Part shown: piece by piece, positions 3,922 through 13,289 of the stretch | Numbering within the stretch: position 1 is the first letter of the stretch | Layout of the letters: each line of letters begins with the position of its first letter | NCBI GenBank assembly: GCA_023136205.1 | Contig: JAGLRQ010000042.1 | Location: 1-32,000 of the forward strand | Reading direction: 5' to 3' | Source: Candidatus Auribacterota bacterium | Lineage (GTDB): Bacteria > Auribacterota > UBA6266 | DNA: 32,000 nt | The notes under the pieces: model-generated | Told to the model about the DNA's origin: nothing | Seen by the model: the letters and a program-made list of their open reading frames with translations, nothing else | The model's database searches: none | Program-made: the position numbers and the translations under genes

Positions 3922-4419
3922 ATGTACCTTAAAGGAAAAACTCCAAAAGTTATCTACAGTCCAGTTGCAACTCCATTCGGAATATTCACATTATGTCACA
4001 ATGAGAAAGAAGTTCTTGAATTTTGTTTCCCTGAAAAGTTCAGAATACCTATAAATCTAAAAAGAACGCGTTTTTCTAATAGAATCGAATCACGGCTGAA
4101 AAGTATGTTTCTTCACGGAAAGCCTCTGCCGAGAATACCTGTTAAATTAGAGGGAAGCGCCTTTGAGTTAAAGGTTTTAAAAGAAATCCGCAAAATACCA
4201 CATGGAAAAACAAAAACATACTCTGATATATCAACAAGGACAAACTTTCCGAAAAGCGCGCGGGCAGTCGGGAATGTCTGCGGAAAAAACAGGATGCCGA
4301 TTTTTATACCCTGCCACAGGGTAGTCACTAAAAACGCAGGCATTGGAAATTACTCTTCCGGGAAAAAGTGGAAGAAACTATTACTGGATATTGAGAAAAA
4401 ACATGAAATGCCGGATTAA
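3922..4419 (+). CDS. ogt: Methylated-DNA--protein-cysteine methyltransferase
   Basis: The active-site motif IPCHRVV is present, with the upstream KTKTYSDIS...ARAVGNVCGKN helix-turn-helix region typical of the Ogt/Ada C-terminal domain. Confidence 0.85.
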   Translation: MYLKGKTPKVIYSPVATPFGIFTLCHNEKEVLEFCFPEKFRIPINLKRTRFSNRIESRLKSMFLHGKPLPRIPVKLEGSAFELKVLKEIRKIPHGKTKTYSDISTRTNFPKSARAVGNVCGKNRMPIFIPCHRVVTKNAGIGNYSSGKKWKKLLLDIEKKHEMPD

Positions 4420-7400
4420 ATACTTTTTTGCGTTTGTTTTAATGCTAATCTCCAACCTGTTGATTGCATCCGAAGATACCGATTTTCTTGAAGGGTTACA
4501 GTACTTCAGGTCATCGGAACCGGAAAAAGCAGCAACGGCTTTTTCGCGGAGCAACTCTCCCGGATCTCTTTACTACCGGCACCTGATTGCTCTGATGAAA
4601 GGAGAAGGAGAAAAGGCGCTGGCAATCGGAATGGAGTATTTAACCAGGTGCGGAGATGAGAACTCAGCTATTATGCCTTATATAACCACCAATGTGCTGA
4701 ACCTGTCGGACGATACGGCAAAAAGCGAAAAAACAACGGAGAAATTATTTTTAAGGTTCATTTCAAGAAACAATACCTTTCCATATCCGGCCATTAATTT
4801 CAGTCTCGGCAAGTTGCTTCTCAGGCAAGGGAAAATCAGTCAGGCAAAAAAGGCTTTTCACTCCCTGTTTCCGATCACAGACTGGTATATCATAGGGGGA
4901 TTTGATAATACGGCAGATTCGGGGTTTGACCGGAAATATCCACCCGAAAAAGAGATCGATCTTAATAAAAAATACATGGGGAAAGATTTTGATATCAAAT
5001 GGAGAAAATACCCCGTTAATTCAATCAGCGGAATAATCGACCTGCTGCAGGTTATAAGGCCGCAAAACTGGGCCGTTGCTTATGCTTTTACGGTTATAAA
5101 CTCAAAAGAAGAGATAGCCTGCTACATTTCCTGCGGAAGCGATGACGGAATTAAAGTCTGGCTAAACGGTGATCTGGTAATAAAAAACCAAAACGGCAGA
5201 GCCCTGGTTATCGATCAGGATTATGCCCCGGCAAAGATTAAAAAAGGCAGTAATCACATTCTTTTGAAGGTCGCGCAAAAAGGAGGGGATTGGAATTTCA
5301 TAATCCGGTTCATCAGCGAACAGGGGCTGCCCATAGAATTTTCACCGGCAGGCTCAGAAGAAATAACTACATACGGACTATCCGGCTCCGAAACCGCTTA
5401 TGAACCTCAAACCTGCCCTTTTTATGAAATACATTCTTTAGACGAGGAGGAGAAAACATTAAAACAGGCCATTATAAAACTGTATCTAAACGACAATAAA
5501 AGCGCGGCAAAAGATTTTGAAAATCTTATAAAAATAAACGCGGGCTGCTGGCTGTACCATCATTATCTGGGAGTGGCTTATGGGCGGGATTTAAAAGGGC
5601 CCAGGGCAATAATGTGTTTTAAAAAGGCGCTTTCCATATACCCGGGGTCTATAAAAACAATAGACGAGATAATAAAATATTACTATGATAAAGAGCTTTT
5701 TAAACCGGCAGAGACATATATCAAACAGTGTATACAATTAAAGCCCTCGTTTTATCCTGCCAAACTTTATAAAGCCCTGATTTACGCGGAAAGGCAGTGG
5801 TATGAAAAAGCCCTGGAAATCGTTAAAAAAATACATTCACAGCATCCTGAAAACCCATGGGTCATTTACTCTCTTTCCTGGCATAAAAAAAACATGGGCT
5901 ATAAAAAAGAAGCGGAGAAACACCTTAAAAAAGCACTGGGAAGGAACCGTATTTACAACGCGGCGGAGAAAGACCTTTTAAAATGTTACATAGAACAGCA
6001 GGATTACTCCAATGCTCTTAGGTTTATGGAAAAATCAGTAAGCCGGGAACTTACCCCGCTAAACACATATACTTCAATGTCATCGGTTTATATGATGAGG
6101 AAGCAATTTTCCAAAGCGAAAAAGATTTTGAAAGAAGCGCTTCAATTATGTCCCGATGATTCCAATATTTATTTTAATCTGGGAAGGATTGCTCTTCTTG
6201 AGAAAAACGAGAAAAAGACCTTTGAATACTGGGAAAAAGCGCTCGAATTAAGGCCTGACTATCTGTGGCTGAAAGATTATTTAAATGATTTAAAACCCCG
6301 GCAAAAAACCATCTTTGACAAATACGAAGAAACTGATATTTCCGCGCTCAGCCTTTTATCAAATAGCCCCGGACAGGAGGATTACCCCGAGGCTTCGGCA
6401 ATAGTCCTTCTCGATAAGTCAATTATTCAATTAAATGTTGACGGTTCAAACACCGAAAAAACACACCGGATTGTAAAAATCCTAAACGAAAAAGGCAGAA
6501 CCGCTTACAGCCAGGTTTCAATACCATATTCCACAAGTTTAAAATTAGAAAAAGCCGTTACCATAACTTCTGAGGGAGAAGAACATGAAGCTACGGAGAT
6601 AAAGGGCGGAAAAATATCCTTTCCTATGGTAAACGTCGGGGCAACCATAGAATACAAGTATTCGATAAACAGATATTCCGGGGGCTGGCTTGACCAACAC
6701 TATTATGAAACATGGATTTTCCAGGACTGGGTACCGGTTTTAAAAAGCAAATATATACTCGCGCTCCCGAAAGGAATGGATATAGTTACCTACCTCAGCA
6801 GTGACAAAATCAAACACACAGTAGAAAATTTCAACGGGTATGATGTAAACATATGGAAAACAAAAAACCTTCCGGAGATATACCATGAAACTGATTCTCC
6901 TCCAATCCAGGATCTTACCGCGAAGGTAATGGTGTCCACAATCCTGTCCTGGGACGAGCTCGCCAGATGGCAGAACAGTTTGATAGATGGCCAATTTGAC
7001 ATGGATGAAAAAATAAGAGAAACCGTAGAACAAATCATTTCCGGAACAAAAAACAGAAAAGAAATTATAAGAAGAATATATGAATACCTTGTTACAGAAA
7101 TAAGATACCTGTACACCGGAGAAGGTATTTTCGGCAAAAAACCGCATAACGCGATAAATATATTCGCGAACAGGTATGGGGACTGTAAAGACAAGGCAAC
7201 ACTTATGATAGCCATGTTGAAGGAATCGGGGATTAAATCTTATTACGCGGGCCTTCCTGTGAGGGGCACAGGGCAGGTAATAAAAAGTGTTCCATGCCCT
7301 CAGACAAACCATATAATTGTTTATATACCTGACTCCGACAAAAAAGGAACCCCCATGTTTGTTGACCCTACCAGCAGATATCTGCCATTTGACATTCTGC

Positions 7401-8182
7401 CGGCAGGGGACCAGGACGTTGACGCGTTAATTTTAAAAAGGCCCGGGTATGAATTTATACGAACACCTGTTGAACCGCCGGATAAATCCACAAAAACCCA
7501 TTCATTCGACATGAAAATCGATGAAAATGGAAATATGCTGTGCTCCTCAAAATTAACGGGGACAGGAGAATTCGCGTCTACATATAGAAACATGTTCAGG
7601 GCTCCCGGGAAAAGGGCTGAACTTCTTGAAAAATCCCTTAACTCTATTATCCGGGGCGCTCATCTAGTAGAACATGACTTTAAAAACTTTGAAAATATAC
7701 AGCCTCCCGTCAAAATAGAATGCGTATTTTCTGCCCCGAATTTTGCCAGGCAGTCAGGTAATGAGCTGAGAATTCCCTCCTTTAACAACTTTAAAATCGC
7801 GCAGACATTCGCGCTTAAATCGAAAAGGCACTATGCAATCTATATGGATGGCATGTACACCCGTAAATATGAAAACATTTACAGGGCACCTGACAGCTAC
7901 CAAACTTATGAGGTACCGGATGACATCAGTCTTGACTGCGGATATATGAGTTTTAGTTCAAAATACAACAGGGGAAAAGATTATGTAAAAAATACTAAAA
8001 TCCTGGTCATAAAAAGCCTGAAAATTCCCCGCGAAGACTATAAAAAGTTCCGAAATTTCTGCATTGAGGTTGACAGGGCCGAAGAAAGAGAAATATCTTT
8101 TAAAAAATCTCCCGTGAAAAATAATGTTGAAATTAATCCTGAAAAAGGTAAAGATACATCATTAGCGAATAGTGAATCGTGA
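4403..8182 (+). CDS. Large secreted TPR / PA14-like / transglutaminase-like protein
   Basis: I prefer the ATG at 4403 because it begins a signal-peptide-like sequence (MKCRIKYFFAFVLMLISNLLIASE). The protein has TPR-like repeats, a PA14-like stretch (GSDDGIKVWLNGDLVI...GSNHILLKVAQKGGDWNF) and a transglutaminase-like core (YGDCKDKATLMIAMLKESGI ... TNHIIVYIP ... FVDPT). Confidence 0.85.
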   Translation: MKCRIKYFFAFVLMLISNLLIASEDTDFLEGLQYFRSSEPEKAATAFSRSNSPGSLYYRHLIALMKGEGEKALAIGMEYLTRCGDENSAIMPYITTNVLNLSDDTAKSEKTTEKLFLRFISRNNTFPYPAINFSLGKLLLRQGKISQAKKAFHSLFPITDWYIIGGFDNTADSGFDRKYPPEKEIDLNKKYMGKDFDIKWRKYPVNSISGIIDLLQVIRPQNWAVAYAFTVINSKEEIACYISCGSDDGIKVWLNGDLVIKNQNGRALVIDQDYAPAKIKKGSNHILLKVAQKGGDWNFIIRFISEQGLPIEFSPAGSEEITTYGLSGSETAYEPQTCPFYEIHSLDEEEKTLKQAIIKLYLNDNKSAAKDFENLIKINAGCWLYHHYLGVAYGRDLKGPRAIMCFKKALSIYPGSIKTIDEIIKYYYDKELFKPAETYIKQCIQLKPSFYPAKLYKALIYAERQWYEKALEIVKKIHSQHPENPWVIYSLSWHKKNMGYKKEAEKHLKKALGRNRIYNAAEKDLLKCYIEQQDYSNALRFMEKSVSRELTPLNTYTSMSSVYMMRKQFSKAKKILKEALQLCPDDSNIYFNLGRIALLEKNEKKTFEYWEKALELRPDYLWLKDYLNDLKPRQKTIFDKYEETDISALSLLSNSPGQEDYPEASAIVLLDKSIIQLNVDGSNTEKTHRIVKILNEKGRTAYSQVSIPYSTSLKLEKAVTITSEGEEHEATEIKGGKISFPMVNVGATIEYKYSINRYSGGWLDQHYYETWIFQDWVPVLKSKYILALPKGMDIVTYLSSDKIKHTVENFNGYDVNIWKTKNLPEIYHETDSPPIQDLTAKVMVSTILSWDELARWQNSLIDGQFDMDEKIRETVEQIISGTKNRKEIIRRIYEYLVTEIRYLYTGEGIFGKKPHNAINIFANRYGDCKDKATLMIAMLKESGIKSYYAGLPVRGTGQVIKSVPCPQTNHIIVYIPDSDKKGTPMFVDPTSRYLPFDILPAGDQDVDALILKRPGYEFIRTPVEPPDKSTKTHSFDMKIDENGNMLCSSKLTGTGEFASTYRNMFRAPGKRAELLEKSLNSIIRGAHLVEHDFKNFENIQPPVKIECVFSAPNFARQSGNELRIPSFNNFKIAQTFALKSKRHYAIYMDGMYTRKYENIYRAPDSYQTYEVPDDISLDCGYMSFSSKYNRGKDYVKNTKILVIKSLKIPREDYKKFRNFCIEVDRAEEREISFKKSPVKNNVEINPEKGKDTSLANSES

Positions 8183-8276: not shown

Positions 8277-10028
8277 ATGAAAATTAAAGTCGCGTATTTA
8301 TCAGGTTTTTGCATGGGGGTAAGAAGAGCCGTAAACATGGTTTATTCCCTGGCAAAAACTAACGCTGGAAAAAAAATATATACTTACGGCCCTCTGATTC
8401 ACAACCCCAAGGTACTTGAAAATCTTGATAAAAAAGGAATATCCAGCATCGGAGCTCCGGAAGAAGCAGACAAAAACAGTATTATAGTAATAAGGGCCCA
8501 CGGAGTACCGCCGCAGGTAGGGAAGGATTTAGCTGCCAGCGGCGCGGAAATATGTAATGCGACATGCCCTGATGTAATGAAGGTTCAAGGGCTTATCAAA
8601 AAATACGCGGGGAAAGATTACCTGGTGGTCATTGTAGGTGACAAGGGACACGCCGAAGTAACAGGGCTCATGGGTTTTTCTAACGGCAAAGGAATCGTAA
8701 TAAGCAGTGTTGAACAAATATCAAATATCCCCGCAGGAAAAAGCGGTATTGCCGTACTGGCTCAAACAACCCAGGACACTAAGCTATACAACGATATCAC
8801 AGCAAAAATCCTGGTAAAATTCCCGGATGCAAAAATATTCAATACTATCTGTAAATCTACATTAAAAAGGCAGAAGGAAACCACCAGGCTGGCAAAAGAG
8901 GTTAACGCTATGATTGTTCTCGGCGGAAAAAACAGCGCCAACACCCGGCGCCTCTTTCATATATGTAAAAACTTGTGCGCTGATACTTTTTATGTAGAAA
9001 AGGCCCGGGACCTGGATATGGATAAAATTCTAAAATATAAAAAAATCGGGATTACAGCCGGGGCTTCGACCCCTAACTGGCAGATAAAAGAACTCGTCAC
9101 TGCACTTAAAAAAAGTACTCATAAAAAACGTTTTAAAATCCTGGAAAAGATTGATGCTCTTATCTATTTTATTGTCAGGACAAACATTTTTATAGCCATA
9201 GGCGCCGGTGTTTTGTCCTATATGGCTACAAAATTTTTAAAACTTCAGAACCCTTCATTGCTGTACCCGATAATAGCGGGCTTATATGTGTTTTCCATGC
9301 ATACATTCAACAAGCTTTTTGATAAAACCCTTGGAGAACTTGAAGACTCGACAAGAATAGCTTTTTTTGATTCACATCATGAAGAGTTTAAAATACTATC
9401 AATAACCGCAATGGCATGCGCGATAATTGCTTCATTGCTGCTGGGGTTTCCGGCTTTCTTAATAACGCTCATTGCTTCGGTTGCCGGAATTTCTTACAGC
9501 ACAAAGTTTTTCCCAAAAAACTGGCCCATAAGAAGATTAAAGGACATACAGATGTCTAAAGATTTATTCGTCAGCCTGGCCTGGACATCGGTCACTGTAT
9601 TTCTCCCGCTTCTCGGATATAAGGGAGTATCTCCGCACCCGATACCGCTGTTTCTTATTATATTTACTTTCCTTTATATTTTCATGCTTGTTTTTATAAG
9701 ATGTTTAACTTACGACCTCCTGGAAATCCATGCCGACAGGATGGTTGGAAGAGAATCGCTGGTCGTGTGCAAAGGAAAATCATTTACAAAAAGGACTATG
9801 GTATATCTTACAACCATAACAGCTATAATGGTGTTCGCCGCGGCGGCCTATAATTTAATACCGGGTTTCGGGTACTTTCTGCCGCTGCTTTCTCTTTATT
9901 CACTGCTGTACCTGGCGCTTTATCACAAAAGGCATTTCTCGCAGGAAATTACGTTTGACCTGATGGTCGATGGAAAATTTATAATAGGCGGAATCATAAT
10001 CTATCTCTGGACATCATTTGCCGGATAA
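8277..10028 (+). CDS. ispH: 4-hydroxy-3-methylbut-2-enyl diphosphate reductase (IspH/LytB) fused to a C-terminal polytopic UbiA-like membrane domain
   Basis: The N-terminal ~285 aa carry IspH hallmarks (GFCMGVRRAV, IHNPKV, RAHGVPP, ATCPDV, GHAEV, AQTTQ, NTICKST, GGKNSANTRRL, GITAGASTP). The C-terminal ~295 aa have about 8 TM helices and the motif YDLLEIHADRMVGRESLVV, which aligns with the second Asp-rich motif of UbiA prenyltransferases. Confidence 0.85.
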   Translation: MKIKVAYLSGFCMGVRRAVNMVYSLAKTNAGKKIYTYGPLIHNPKVLENLDKKGISSIGAPEEADKNSIIVIRAHGVPPQVGKDLAASGAEICNATCPDVMKVQGLIKKYAGKDYLVVIVGDKGHAEVTGLMGFSNGKGIVISSVEQISNIPAGKSGIAVLAQTTQDTKLYNDITAKILVKFPDAKIFNTICKSTLKRQKETTRLAKEVNAMIVLGGKNSANTRRLFHICKNLCADTFYVEKARDLDMDKILKYKKIGITAGASTPNWQIKELVTALKKSTHKKRFKILEKIDALIYFIVRTNIFIAIGAGVLSYMATKFLKLQNPSLLYPIIAGLYVFSMHTFNKLFDKTLGELEDSTRIAFFDSHHEEFKILSITAMACAIIASLLLGFPAFLITLIASVAGISYSTKFFPKNWPIRRLKDIQMSKDLFVSLAWTSVTVFLPLLGYKGVSPHPIPLFLIIFTFLYIFMLVFIRCLTYDLLEIHADRMVGRESLVVCKGKSFTKRTMVYLTTITAIMVFAAAAYNLIPGFGYFLPLLSLYSLLYLALYHKRHFSQEITFDLMVDGKFIIGGIIIYLWTSFAG

Positions 10029-10071: not shown

Positions 10072-10440
10072 ATGATATGCCAAAAATGCGGATATGAAAA
10101 CAGCAGGGTAAACTTTTGCCCAAAGTGCAAAATCCAAATGTATCCTGCGGGGAGTACCATTCTCAAAAAAAAGAGAGGTACAGGATTTGTTGAATTTTTA
10201 AACATGGTTTTTAGATTTATATTTAACGTAATCCTTAGAATAGTTGAGTCAATAGCTTTCTCTTTTCTTTTCTACTGGTTTTTATACGGGCTGATATTCG
10301 GGCTTGGATTTATAGCTAAAAACGTCGAATCGGACCTTGCCGTTTATTTGGATATCGCGCGTATTCCGCAGATTGCCTTATATGGCTGTTATATTGTCAT
10401 AACCTTTATGACCTTTAAATACAGATGGCCAAAAACCTGA
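10072..10440 (+). CDS. Zinc-ribbon membrane protein, unknown function
   Basis: The N-terminus has CxxC-N11-CxxC (MICQKCGYENSRVNFCPKCK), followed by 2-3 hydrophobic helices. Confidence 0.55.
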   Translation: MICQKCGYENSRVNFCPKCKIQMYPAGSTILKKKRGTGFVEFLNMVFRFIFNVILRIVESIAFSFLFYWFLYGLIFGLGFIAKNVESDLAVYLDIARIPQIALYGCYIVITFMTFKYRWPKT

Positions 10441-10456: not shown

Positions 10457-11932
10457 ATGAATCACGGGGAACTAATCATATCCGGGTTTCGCGGAACAGC
10501 ATTCAATAAAGAACTCGAAAAAAAAATACTTGTCGATAAGGCCGCAGGGCTTATCCTGTTCGCAAGAAACATCTCAACTTTAAAATCGCTAAAGAAACTT
10601 ACCACCTGCTGCCAGAGCGCAAGAAAATCAATTTCCAGATCACCGCTAATAATAGCAATTGACCATGAGGGAGGCAGGGTAAACAGGTTCGGCGGCCTTT
10701 TAACATCCATACCATCTTCTATGGCTATCGCATCAGCCGCATCTGAAGAGGAAACAAACAAACTCGGTAAACTCATGGCTTGCGAACTGCTTGCCTGCGG
10801 AATAAATCTTAACCTTGCTCCTGTTCTTGATATAAACGACGTTGAAGAAAATCCAGGAATCGGCATAAGATCCTTTGGCTCTAATGCGCGTACGGTTTCA
10901 AAATTCGCGAATAAACTCATCGAGGGAATGGCGAAAAATGGACTCCAGGCCTGCCCGAAACATTTCCCGGGGAAGGGAAGCGCAAGAAAAGATGCTCACT
11001 ATGTACTGCCTTACATCAATAAAACCTCGAAAAAACTTTTTAACCACGATATTGTTCCTTTTAAAAACACCATAAAAAAAGGCAGGGCAAAATGTGTAAT
11101 GGTATCACACGCAATTTATCCCGCGCTTGACAAAAACTTTCCCGCGAGCATGTCAAAAAAGATTATCGATAAAATACTTATAAAAAAATTGGGTTACACC
11201 GGGCTTATTATCACAGATGACATTGAAATGGGGGCAATCAAAAATAATTATGACCTGTCGTATTTTTCAACGCAGTCGCTAAAAGCAGGAGCAGACATAC
11301 TCCTTGTCTGCCACTCGAAAAACGCGTTTAAAAAGGCGAAAACAGGGATATCAAAATTACCTGACTCAATCATAGAAAAACGCATTGCCAAAATAACCGC
11401 GTGGAAAGAACAGCACCTGTGTTTTCAAAAACATCCTGTTAACAACAGGAACCTGACAGCCGCGGCAAGAACGGTATCCGAAAAAGCCATTGAAATAAAA
11501 ATTAACAGAAAAATTACAGCGAAAAAGAGATGTCTCTTGATAAGCTTTACCGGTGATGCTTCTGCGGTAGAATCTTATTCAAAAACCTGCATGGAAGAAA
11601 TATCCACCCTCTGTAGAAAATACATACCCGGCACAAAAAAAATATTTCTGCCTTTAAACCCATCTTCCTGCCGGTACAAGGAAATTTCTTTAAGCGTAAG
11701 AACTCCGATTATACTGTCAAACAACGCGCACCTCCATAAAAACCAGGAAAAAGCCATCCAGACAATACTTAAAAAAACAAAAGGCAATTGTTTTGCTTTT
11801 GCAATTTCAAACCCTTATGATAAAAAATATTTTAAAAAGTGCGCGGTATCCGGAGCAACATATTCTCCCGGCAGATATTCGCTTGAAAAGATTTTTAAAT
11901 TTTTAAAAGAACAGTTAAATGGATACAATTAA
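10457..11932 (+). CDS. nagZ: Beta-N-acetylhexosaminidase (glycoside hydrolase family 3, NagZ-like) with a ~150-aa C-terminal extension
   Basis: GH3 motifs are present: IDHEGGRVNRF, KHFPGKG and ITDDIEMGAI. Confidence 0.85.
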   Translation: MNHGELIISGFRGTAFNKELEKKILVDKAAGLILFARNISTLKSLKKLTTCCQSARKSISRSPLIIAIDHEGGRVNRFGGLLTSIPSSMAIASAASEEETNKLGKLMACELLACGINLNLAPVLDINDVEENPGIGIRSFGSNARTVSKFANKLIEGMAKNGLQACPKHFPGKGSARKDAHYVLPYINKTSKKLFNHDIVPFKNTIKKGRAKCVMVSHAIYPALDKNFPASMSKKIIDKILIKKLGYTGLIITDDIEMGAIKNNYDLSYFSTQSLKAGADILLVCHSKNAFKKAKTGISKLPDSIIEKRIAKITAWKEQHLCFQKHPVNNRNLTAAARTVSEKAIEIKINRKITAKKRCLLISFTGDASAVESYSKTCMEEISTLCRKYIPGTKKIFLPLNPSSCRYKEISLSVRTPIILSNNAHLHKNQEKAIQTILKKTKGNCFAFAISNPYDKKYFKKCAVSGATYSPGRYSLEKIFKFLKEQLNGYN

Positions 11933-11978
11933 ATTCAGTGTAAATCAGTTTTATTTTTATACTCAATACTAATTTGTT

Positions 11979-13289
11979 ATGAAAACTAATTTGTTTGCAA
12001 TAGAAAACCTTTATAAAAAAATAACTCTGTGCCTCTGTGCCTCTGCGGCCATTCTATGCCTTTTATCACAGGGATGTTCTAACATAGAAAAAAACGGCAC
12101 AACTATTGTCTACCACACGATAGAATCCCTGCCCGAGCAGATTGACGCGCTGAAACTGCTGGTTAAAGAATTCGAAAAGAAAAATCCTGATATCAAGGTC
12201 AGGATAGAAACTGCCCCTTCGGGGACAGCATCGGTTTTCCAAAAACTAAAAATCAGTATCGCGGGACAAAATCCCCCGGATGTTTTTTACATGGTGACAG
12301 ACAGACTGGATGAATATATCCAAAAAGGGGCCATCCTTGATATTTCTGATTATGTGAAAAATGATTTTCCCTCAATTGAAAATGTATACTTTCCACAGGC
12401 AGTCAAAAGCTGTTATAAAAACGGCAGGATTTACTGTTTCCCGTTCCATTTCAGCACCGATATACTATTTTACAATAAAGACCTGTTTGATTCGGCAGGT
12501 GTCGATTACCCAAAAGACAAATGGAACTGGAATGACCTTTTAAAAACCGCTGAAAAAACAAGGGTGCGGGATAACCGGAGAATAAAGGTTTTCGGGGTAC
12601 TTCAGCCAAGGCCGCTGATGATCATCCGCTCTTTTGGCGGCGAAGTCTTTAAAATCAATCCTCTGAGGTGCACTATTAACTCTGAGGAAACAAAACAGGC
12701 GCTTCGATTCTTAATAGACCTTAATAAAAAATACCAGGTCTCTCCCATAAATGCCGCTTTAAACCCCGGGGAAAGAAGCCAGGTTGAAATGGACATGTTT
12801 AAATCCGGAAAGGTCGCAATGTTTACAGGCAGGACTTATATGCTCATCGATTTTGCCGGCATTAAAGATTTTAACTGGGACATAGCGTTTATTCCGACAG
12901 GGAAAAAACATTACTCGCGGTTGGCGGTAGGCGGCAACTGTATATCATCCGTAACCGAAAATCCCGAAGCCGCCTGGAAATTTGTCAAATTCTATTCATC
13001 CGTTGAGGGCTCAAAAATAATGGGACAGAAACGCAATTGTGTTCCGGCTTGTATTGATATCGCGAAGTCTGATATTTTTCTTGCTCCGCCGCCGAAAAAC
13101 ATAGAAAAAGCAATTCTGCAGATTAAAACGTCTGAAATGGAAATTTACCCCGTGAAAGGATGGAGAGAGTTCCTGGAAAAAGAATTTATGCCCACAATCG
13201 ACAAAATCCTCCTCGGAAAAATATCCGTTGAAAAAGGAGTCTCTTCGCTGGAAAGAAAGGCAAAAAATCTTTTGTCGACTAAAAACTGA
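11979..13289 (+). CDS. ABC transporter extracellular solute-binding lipoprotein (sugar-type family 1)
   Basis: It has a lipobox (LLSQGC) and the typical family-1 SBP layout ([19 protein letters not shown]). No permease or ATPase gene is adjacent. Confidence 0.8.
   Translation: MKTNLFAIENLYKKITLCLCASAAILCLLSQGCSNIEKNGTTIVYHTIESLPEQIDALKLLVKEFEKKNPDIKVRIETAPSGTASVFQKLKISIAGQNPPDVFYMVTDRLDEYIQKGAILDISDYVKNDFPSIENVYFPQAVKSCYKNGRIYCFPFHFSTDILFYNKDLFDSAGVDYPKDKWNWNDLLKTAEKTRVRDNRRIKVFGVLQPRPLMIIRSFGGEVFKINPLRCTINSEETKQALRFLIDLNKKYQVSPINAALNPGERSQVEMDMFKSGKVAMFTGRTYMLIDFAGIKDFNWDIAFIPTGKKHYSRLAVGGNCISSVTENPEAAWKFVKFYSSVEGSKIMGQKRNCVPACIDIAKSDIFLAPPPKNIEKAILQIKTSEMEIYPVKGWREFLEKEFMPTIDKILLGKISVEKGVSSLERKAKNLLSTKN

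Follow-up and report, generated by a model that had tools for sequence, protein, structure and literature searches.

Proteins in which IspH is joined to a UbiA-like domain have been described as "Rosetta stone" fusions by Rao, O'Dowd, Li, Wang and Oldfield (2015, Chem Sci 6:6813; PMC4746011), who reported 47 IspH-UbiA sequences from sulfate reducers, mainly Desulfobacterales. The UbiA part was assigned there to the CDD family PT_UbiA_5, the function of which was not known to the authors, and it was proposed that the fusion places IspH at the membrane and provides a local supply of IPP and DMAPP; expression of the full-length protein failed (PMC4746011). The IspH-RPS1 fusions of Firmicutes and Fusobacteria are also covered in the same paper. 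Within the literature library searched, functional work on IspH-UbiA published after 2015 was not found.

The window analysed here is a stretch of 32,000 nucleotides from a Candidatus Auribacterota bacterium (contig JAGLRQ010000042.1). The product of its ORF at 8277-10028 is a member of the published IspH-UbiA family, and the fusion of IspH to a membrane prenyltransferase domain, which an earlier note on this DNA had taken to be new, was already in print in 2015 (PMC4746011). Domain order (IspH N-terminal, a UbiA-like domain of nine transmembrane (TM) helices C-terminal) and a length of about 580 residues are shared with the family of Rao et al., whereas the source is a small-genome uncultured bacterium and not one of their sulfate reducers. 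The protein is 37-41% identical, at 98-100% coverage, to more than 100 clusters that have both Pfam domains, among them members from Desulfobacterota, Nitrospirota, Nitrospinota and Brocadia. The features of the locus are listed in Table 1.

Table 1. Coordinates of the features at the ispH-ubiA locus, given as positions of the window.
Feature	Position	Strand	Description and basis
ispH-ubiA fusion gene	8277..10028	+	Single ORF; 583 aa plus stop; Pfam LYTB and UbiA
IspH (LytB) domain	8277..9119	+	Residues 1-281; Pfam, TIGR00216 and structure match
Basic linker helix, K/R-rich, leading into TM1	9120..9176	+	Residues ~282-300; translation and model helices H267-284 and H287-301
UbiA-fold membrane domain	9177..10025	+	Residues ~301-583; nine TM helices; Pfam, structure and profile match
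Eroded first Asp-rich motif and next loop	9309..9356	+	Alignment to 6m31; family statistics
Second Asp-rich motif, D480-x2-E483-x3-D487-R-x2-G491-x-E493-S494	9714..9764	+	Aligns with DxxDxxxD of 6m31
Zinc-ribbon plus TM protein, 122 aa	10072..10440	+	43 nt downstream of the fusion; next gene downstream (+1) in 5 of 5 family-f1 loci

The N-terminal part was matched by Pfam LYTB (PF02401) over residues 3-277 with an E-value of 7.8e-88 (294.7 bits against a cut-off of 24.5) and by the NCBIfam model TIGR00216 (ispH_lytB) with 274.5 bits against a cut-off of 187.85. The top-scoring NCBIfam model of this half is NF000907 (IspH-RPS1), which reaches 314 bits over profile positions 1-282. The family alignment shows no variation at the three cysteines of the 4Fe-4S cluster (C12, C97 and C192), at the catalytic H42, H125 and E127 or at the diphosphate contacts T164/T165, S220, N222 and S264, all of which the protein has. 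We take the cluster and catalytic residues among them to be the counterparts of C12, C96, C197, H41, H124 and E126 of E. coli IspH. For the C-terminal part, Pfam UbiA (PF01040) was found over residues 332-552 with an E-value of 3.4e-14 and 53.2 bits against a gathering cut-off of 34.2; scored alone, the domain gives 56.4 bits. Its NCBIfam matches are weak and of the archaeal prenyltransferase type (PRK13591, 27-28 bits against 238; PRK12884, 13.9-16.1 bits against 269), and the matches at E <= 1 include no UbiA or MenA equivalog model, although absence from this match list is no proof. The identities of DGGGP synthase, MenA/UbiA, heme O synthase and DPPR synthase were each considered for this half and set aside, as no model comes near its cut-off and the first motif that they require is incomplete. 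A search of a protein atlas returned generic UbiA clusters only.

An AlphaFold2 model built from 28 family members has a mean pLDDT of 85.4 and contains an alpha/beta IspH trefoil, the linker helix and nine TM helices. Superposition with VIA-align matched residues 1-281 to E. coli IspH (3szu) with a Z-score of 33.4 and an rmsd of 1.7 A over 280 residues. The UbiA half (approximately residues 298-580) matched the Aeropyrum pernix UbiA (4od5; Z 20.9, 262 residues), the A. fulgidus UbiA homologue (4tq4; Z 19.8), the M. jannaschii DGGGP synthase (6m31; Z 16.6) and UBIAD1 (8djk; Z 16.1), and Foldseek agreed with VIA-align on both the IspH and the UbiA folds. The complete IspH and the UbiA-like C-terminal domain proposed in the earlier note are thus borne out by profiles and model alike; the exception is its count of about eight TM helices, the number in the model being nine. 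The ORF is a true in-frame join of IspH to a nine-helix UbiA-fold domain. The linker and IspH would lie on the cytoplasmic side of the membrane, given the N-in topology seen in solved UbiA structures and the positive-inside rule as applied to the basic linker. There is good support for IspH being tethered to the membrane.

The junction, at about 9100-9170, is rich in A-runs (9104-9135), and such homopolymers are where a sequencing frameshift or an assembly join might have fused two separate genes. The region shows no stop and no frame change. A search for the same fusion in related genomes, a check that the earlier note had named, found a 584-aa frame with 95% identity across the UbiA half in a genome of the same genus (G001). 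The domain lies within a fused frame in 22 of 41 genomes of the phylum, mostly of 574-641 aa, three of these frames ending at contig ends. The protein database holds relatives of 99% and 88% identity (the latter P0003, 579 aa), both from other assemblies, and more than 120 clusters of 560-585 aa with both Pfam domains from several phyla. A continuous IspH-UbiA frame is also carried by the complete genome of Ca. Brocadia pituitae. Since the same fused frame is conserved across genomes and assemblies, a frameshift or a false join is excluded, and we give an artefact a negligible probability.

The nearest named relatives of the protein come from Candidatus Aureabacteria (61-62% identity), and protein matches place further members in Nitrospirae, Nitrospinae, Deltaproteobacteria/Thermodesulfobacteriota and Candidatus Brocadia. 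Scanning with a hand-made, degenerate DNA pattern of the second motif, which requires D480, D487, G491, E493, T494 and P496, added Syntrophales/Smithella, Desulfarculales, Desulfomonile, Scalinduaceae, Holophagaceae, Solibacteraceae, Spirochaetota, MAGs labelled Verrucomicrobiota, Desulfocarbo indianensis and Ca. Brocadia pituitae. The range of the family is therefore wider than the picture of 2015, in which it was confined to sulfate reducers.

We also asked if this UbiA subtype is ever free-standing. Among the 120 loci listed by the pattern scan, the IspH part is in the same ORF in 102; of the other 18, 15 are cut by the end of the locus and three missed a simple IspH check, two of these being 574 and 589 aa long. 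Run exhaustively with HMMER against 1.84 billion representatives, the C-terminal half gave 821 proteins at E <= 0.001, and the best 150 of these are mostly about 575 aa long with the matching region at about 290-575. Six relatives of about 290 aa begin with Met and keep a canonical first motif (N-R-x-T-D-x-x-E-D); their best NCBIfam scores are to PRK13591/DGGGP-synthase models, below the cut-off. We read these six as genuine stand-alone relatives of a different subtype. A few short metagenome proteins (P0132 and P0164, and P0228 and P0242 of about 290-310 aa) have the fused-type motif, and at least two of them are visibly truncated. A word-based search for shorter homologues found one contig-end fragment and nothing else. 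Wherever it could be judged in the genomes searched, the subtype is always fused; the short P0228 and P0242 keep "never free-standing" from being proven.

For the active-site motifs, a profile of the UbiA-half alignment, which matched the M. jannaschii DGGGP synthase at E 2.5e-6, served to fix the residue equivalences; phmmer run on the PDB with the C-terminal half as a single sequence gave chance matches only. In the alignment to 6m31, N345, D349 and position 353 correspond to the N, D and D of NDxxDxxxD, P358 and R360 to the P.R that follows, and D480, position 483 and D487 to DxxDxxxD, E483 being a conservative change. The second Asp-rich motif claimed by the earlier note is thus located (D480-x2-E483-x3-D487-x3-G491, E493). 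Its remark that the first is only partly kept is also accurate: N345-x3-D349 remain while G353 replaces the last, canonical Asp, followed by E354, E356, D357 and R360. Of the two Asp-rich motifs of the UbiA family, therefore, the second is found here and the first, in its canonical form, is not. In the model, residues 352-356 of the first-motif region have pLDDT values below 50.

Statistics on the first motif were taken from 287 non-identical fused proteins, with the caution that the loop alignment near the motif is uncertain. Position 345 is N in 93%, position 349 is D in 48% and E in 22%, and position 353 is D in 22%. The canonical N-D-D combination occurs in 6 of the 287, as compared to all six stand-alone relatives, and N-[DE]-[DE] in 48 (17%). 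About 70-75% of the family have D or E at position 357. Since the present protein fits this pattern, the erosion of its first motif is a trait of the family and not a defect of this copy. Because the DNA pattern itself demands D480, D487, G491 and E493, all other conservation figures were restricted to 202 sequences that had not been chosen by it. Among these, D487 is conserved in 100%, Y407 in 99.5%, G491 in 99%, E493 in 98%, K428 in 96%, S427 in 95%, R475 in 93% and D480 in 85%, and position 483 is D in 67%. Only the fused subtype has R475 and E493; in the stand-alone relatives the corresponding residues are N/T and K/N/H. This conservation suggests that the pocket was reshaped and did not simply decay.

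LytB has a single match in this genome (1.76 Mb, 92.65% complete), the fused gene, which at this completeness is the only copy found. The same holds for the fused frames of Ca. Brocadia pituitae, Desulfocarbo indianensis and three MAGs belonging to Desulfobacterales, Planctomycetota and Spirochaetota. Within the phylum, a LytB match is present in 39 of 41 genomes, each with one IspH gene and none with both forms; the frames are either fused (574-641 aa) or unfused (276-412 aa), three copies being cut or split at contig ends, and in two incomplete assemblies the IspH gene is split over contig ends. No match to the UbiA-type domain was found in those of the 41 sampled genomes that have an unfused IspH. 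One family of genomes (f11) holds both states, which points to repeated gain or loss of the domain.

The genome also has IspG, and a single trans-polyprenyl synthase and UppS are the only isoprenoid-chain enzymes found in it. The N-terminal half of the fused gene is a complete HMBPP reductase, and as it is the only IspH found and IspG is present, we infer that it converts HMBPP to IPP and DMAPP. Being the only IspH found, it must supply both products for all isoprenoids. A search of this genome for the UbiA family returned nothing besides the fusion itself; consequently no UbiA-family step for quinone (MenA/UbiA-type) or heme O prenylation was found.

The neighbourhood of the fusion was compared in 120 loci listed by the pattern scan and 18 loci of the phylum. 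The 122-aa zinc-ribbon protein encoded downstream has no Pfam match. A promoter and terminator scan found nothing above shuffles between the two genes, and no terminator-like site; the zinc-ribbon gene is possibly co-transcribed with the fusion. The commonest neighbour in the phylum is an ogt/MGMT-type gene: in 9 of 18 loci it sits right next to the fusion, in some cases with an overlap of 1-4 nt. Between the ogt of the window (3922-4419) and ispH-ubiA stands a 3.8-kb TPR/transglutaminase gene that is confined to this genus. UDG and priA lie downstream in four loci of the phylum. In Desulfobacterota, tlyA (-1), dxs (-2) and ispA (-3) recur as the usual ispA-dxs-tlyA block, along with tmk, PSP1, a YacP-type protein, parB and a convergent plsY, and in Syntrophales a 200-aa lipoprotein is encoded at +1. 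The convergent plsY (17 loci) and the Syntrophales lipoprotein (25 loci) were considered as partners and rejected, both being clade-restricted. The search of the 120 and 18 loci for acceptor-pathway genes, aromatic or lipid, found only housekeeping or single-lineage genes near the fusion.

Taken together, we favour, at about an even chance, a reading in which the UbiA half is a remodelled ligand-binding pocket that serves IspH by tethering or sensing and does not belong to a separate lipid or quinone pathway. The fused IspH would make IPP and DMAPP for all isoprenoids of the cell, and the basic linker together with the N-in topology would put it at the cytoplasmic face of the membrane, beside the UbiA cavity. 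The UbiA half would no longer be a canonical two-motif, Mg-dependent prenyltransferase; instead, a pocket formed by N345, Y407, S427/K428, R475, D480, D487 and E493 may bind a phosphate-bearing, probably prenyl, ligand. It would either tether IspH to the membrane or sense a membrane prenyl (di)phosphate and tune IspH in response. It argues against an active enzyme that the canonical first motif is almost absent, that free-standing orthologues and partner genes are lacking, and that the domain is missing wherever IspH is unfused. However, a real enzyme would equally show strongly conserved polar pocket residues, and the acidic residues near the first motif (D/E in 70% at position 349; E354, E356 and D357 here) could provide a shifted metal site that supports catalysis; the 17% of members with N-[DE]-[DE] also speak against our reading.

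Rao et al. and the earlier note read the protein as a bifunctional enzyme, the note with channelling of isoprenoid units to lipid or quinone prenylation in mind. The prenyltransferase half would then be active and use IspH-derived DMAPP/IPP, or a prenyl diphosphate made downstream, on a membrane acceptor, the fusion serving to raise the local substrate concentration. The retained UbiA fold and cap loops, a second motif, Y407, K428 and R360 conserved as in DGGGP synthase, and the acidic residues which most members keep near the first motif are all in line with this, as is the presence of ispA and dxs upstream in a subset of the Desulfobacterota loci; moreover, an A. fulgidus UbiA homologue that resembles the model has been crystallised with DMAPP and GPP, according to the structure titles. 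On the other hand, the canonical N-D-D is confined to the six members counted above, no acceptor-pathway gene is conserved nearby, genomes of the phylum with an unfused IspH have neither the domain nor a replacement, and quinone prenylation in particular finds no other UbiA-family gene and no such step in this genome. We regard an active prenyltransferase half as possible, if somewhat doubtful. A decayed enzyme kept merely for its helices, as a passive membrane anchor, would fit the eroded first motif, the constant attachment to IspH among the loci judged and the dispensability of the domain within the phylum; but D487, Y407, E493, K428 and R475 are kept at 93-100% across several phyla at about 30% overall identity, and one or two helices would suffice for anchoring, which makes this quite improbable. 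A more specific form of the remodelled pocket is a lipid-sensing regulatory module, in which a prenyl (di)phosphate held by R475, E493, D487 and K428 would adjust the activity or stability of IspH. We consider this form unlikely, and if it were true it would be a bacterial single-chain counterpart of the feedback pair that UBIAD1 and HMG-CoA reductase form in animals, and the MEP pathway would be controlled by its end product at the final reaction.

IspH, an essential enzyme, is a drug target, and little is understood of how flux is controlled over the final steps of the MEP pathway. Anaerobes of several phyla have their sole IspH joined to a UbiA-fold domain with a decayed catalytic motif, and this suggests that they organise or regulate the final MEP reaction at the membrane. 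The ORF itself adds one more member to a family known since 2015, and the job of its membrane half is a family-wide question. What is new stands at the level of the family: the fused gene as sole copy, the constant fusion wherever it can be judged, one IspH per genome, the eroded first motif and the near-invariant R475 and E493. These patterns narrow the choice of worthwhile experiments.

UBIAD1 senses geranylgeranyl diphosphate, and its pairing with HMG-CoA reductase in animals (8djk) likewise couples a UbiA-fold protein to a key isoprenoid-precursor enzyme. The likeness is an analogy only: UBIAD1 is an active prenyltransferase on a polypeptide of its own, it belongs with the mevalonate and not the MEP pathway, and no homology is implied other than the superfamily fold that both share. 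The IspH-RPS1 proteins are likewise C-terminal fusions to a housekeeping IspH, where the partner consists of four to six S1 RNA-binding repeats in place of a membrane domain; the whole-protein cut-off of NF000907 (624 bits) is not reached by the present protein. The C-terminal half is closest to archaeal DGGGP-synthase-like enzymes. With the archaeal UbiA enzymes (DGGGP synthase 6m31/7bpu, 4tq3 and 4od5) it shares the nine-TM fold, the second motif and the N...P.R residues, while it scores far below the cut-offs of the DGGGP-synthase-type models (27 against 238 bits) and has Gly at the third acidic position of the first motif. Within the IspH-UbiA family itself, Rao et al. reported two DXXXD repeats, whereas the first motif is non-canonical in the present protein and in the majority of members, and their sulfate reducers have a separate UbiA/MenA, whereas in this genome the fusion is the sole UbiA-family gene found.

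The ispH-ubiA fusion gene is directly adjoined by an ogt/MGMT-type gene (Pfam DNA_binding_1) in 9 of the 18 same-phylum loci, the two overlapping by 1-4 nt in some of them. The side on which ogt lies varies: one family has it upstream of the fusion gene, other families downstream. The TPR/DUF3857/transglutaminase gene that intervenes in the window's genus is 88% identical to its copy in the congener (G001), and the sister-genus loci have no match to it.

On the other flank, the zinc-ribbon protein is kept right after ispH-ubiA in all five family-f1 loci examined, with 52-89% identity. It combines an N-terminal zinc ribbon (CxxC...CxxC) with hydrophobic helices and has no Pfam match. The order of the GH3 and solute-binding protein genes that follow is likewise kept in those f1 loci which reach far enough.

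Location of genes neighbouring ispH-ubiA in the window and in other loci carrying the fusion (L-numbers)
Feature	Location	Remark
ogt/MGMT-type gene	window 3922-4419	Pfam DNA_binding_1
ogt/MGMT-type gene	L139:8159-8647; L152:10104-10589	
TPR/DUF3857/transglutaminase gene	window 4403-8182	3.8 kb; separates ogt from ispH-ubiA in window's genus
Zinc-ribbon protein	window 10072-10440	122 aa; starts 43 nt 3' of ispH-ubiA
GH3 (NagZ-like) glycosidase, then solute-binding protein	window 10457-13289	same strand
plsY	L128:3441-4130	one of at least 17 loci
ispA - dxs - tlyA - ispH-ubiA row	L113:6679-7998; L104:1703-2440; L133:92-1000	
Predicted lipoprotein	L048:5915-6511 (-)	others include L020, L032, L036

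A convergent plsY (glycerol-3-phosphate acyltransferase) lies just 3' of ispH-ubiA in at least 17 loci, which could reflect a lipid link or merely local gene order. Syntrophales/Smithella-type genomes carry at the 3' side, on the same strand, a predicted lipoprotein of ~200 aa (at least 25 loci) that contains a lipobox-like CGG but matches no Pfam family; the gap to ispH-ubiA is -31 to +42 nt in most loci. Some of the Desulfobacterota have the fusion gene as the last member of an ispA - dxs - tlyA - ispH-ubiA row, and therefore the entry and exit enzymes of the MEP pathway are encoded together there.

Within family f11 of the phylum, some genera possess a fused IspH (genomes G031 and G039) whereas in others it is unfused (G015 and G023). 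This co-occurrence implies that the UbiA-like domain was recently gained or lost within the family.
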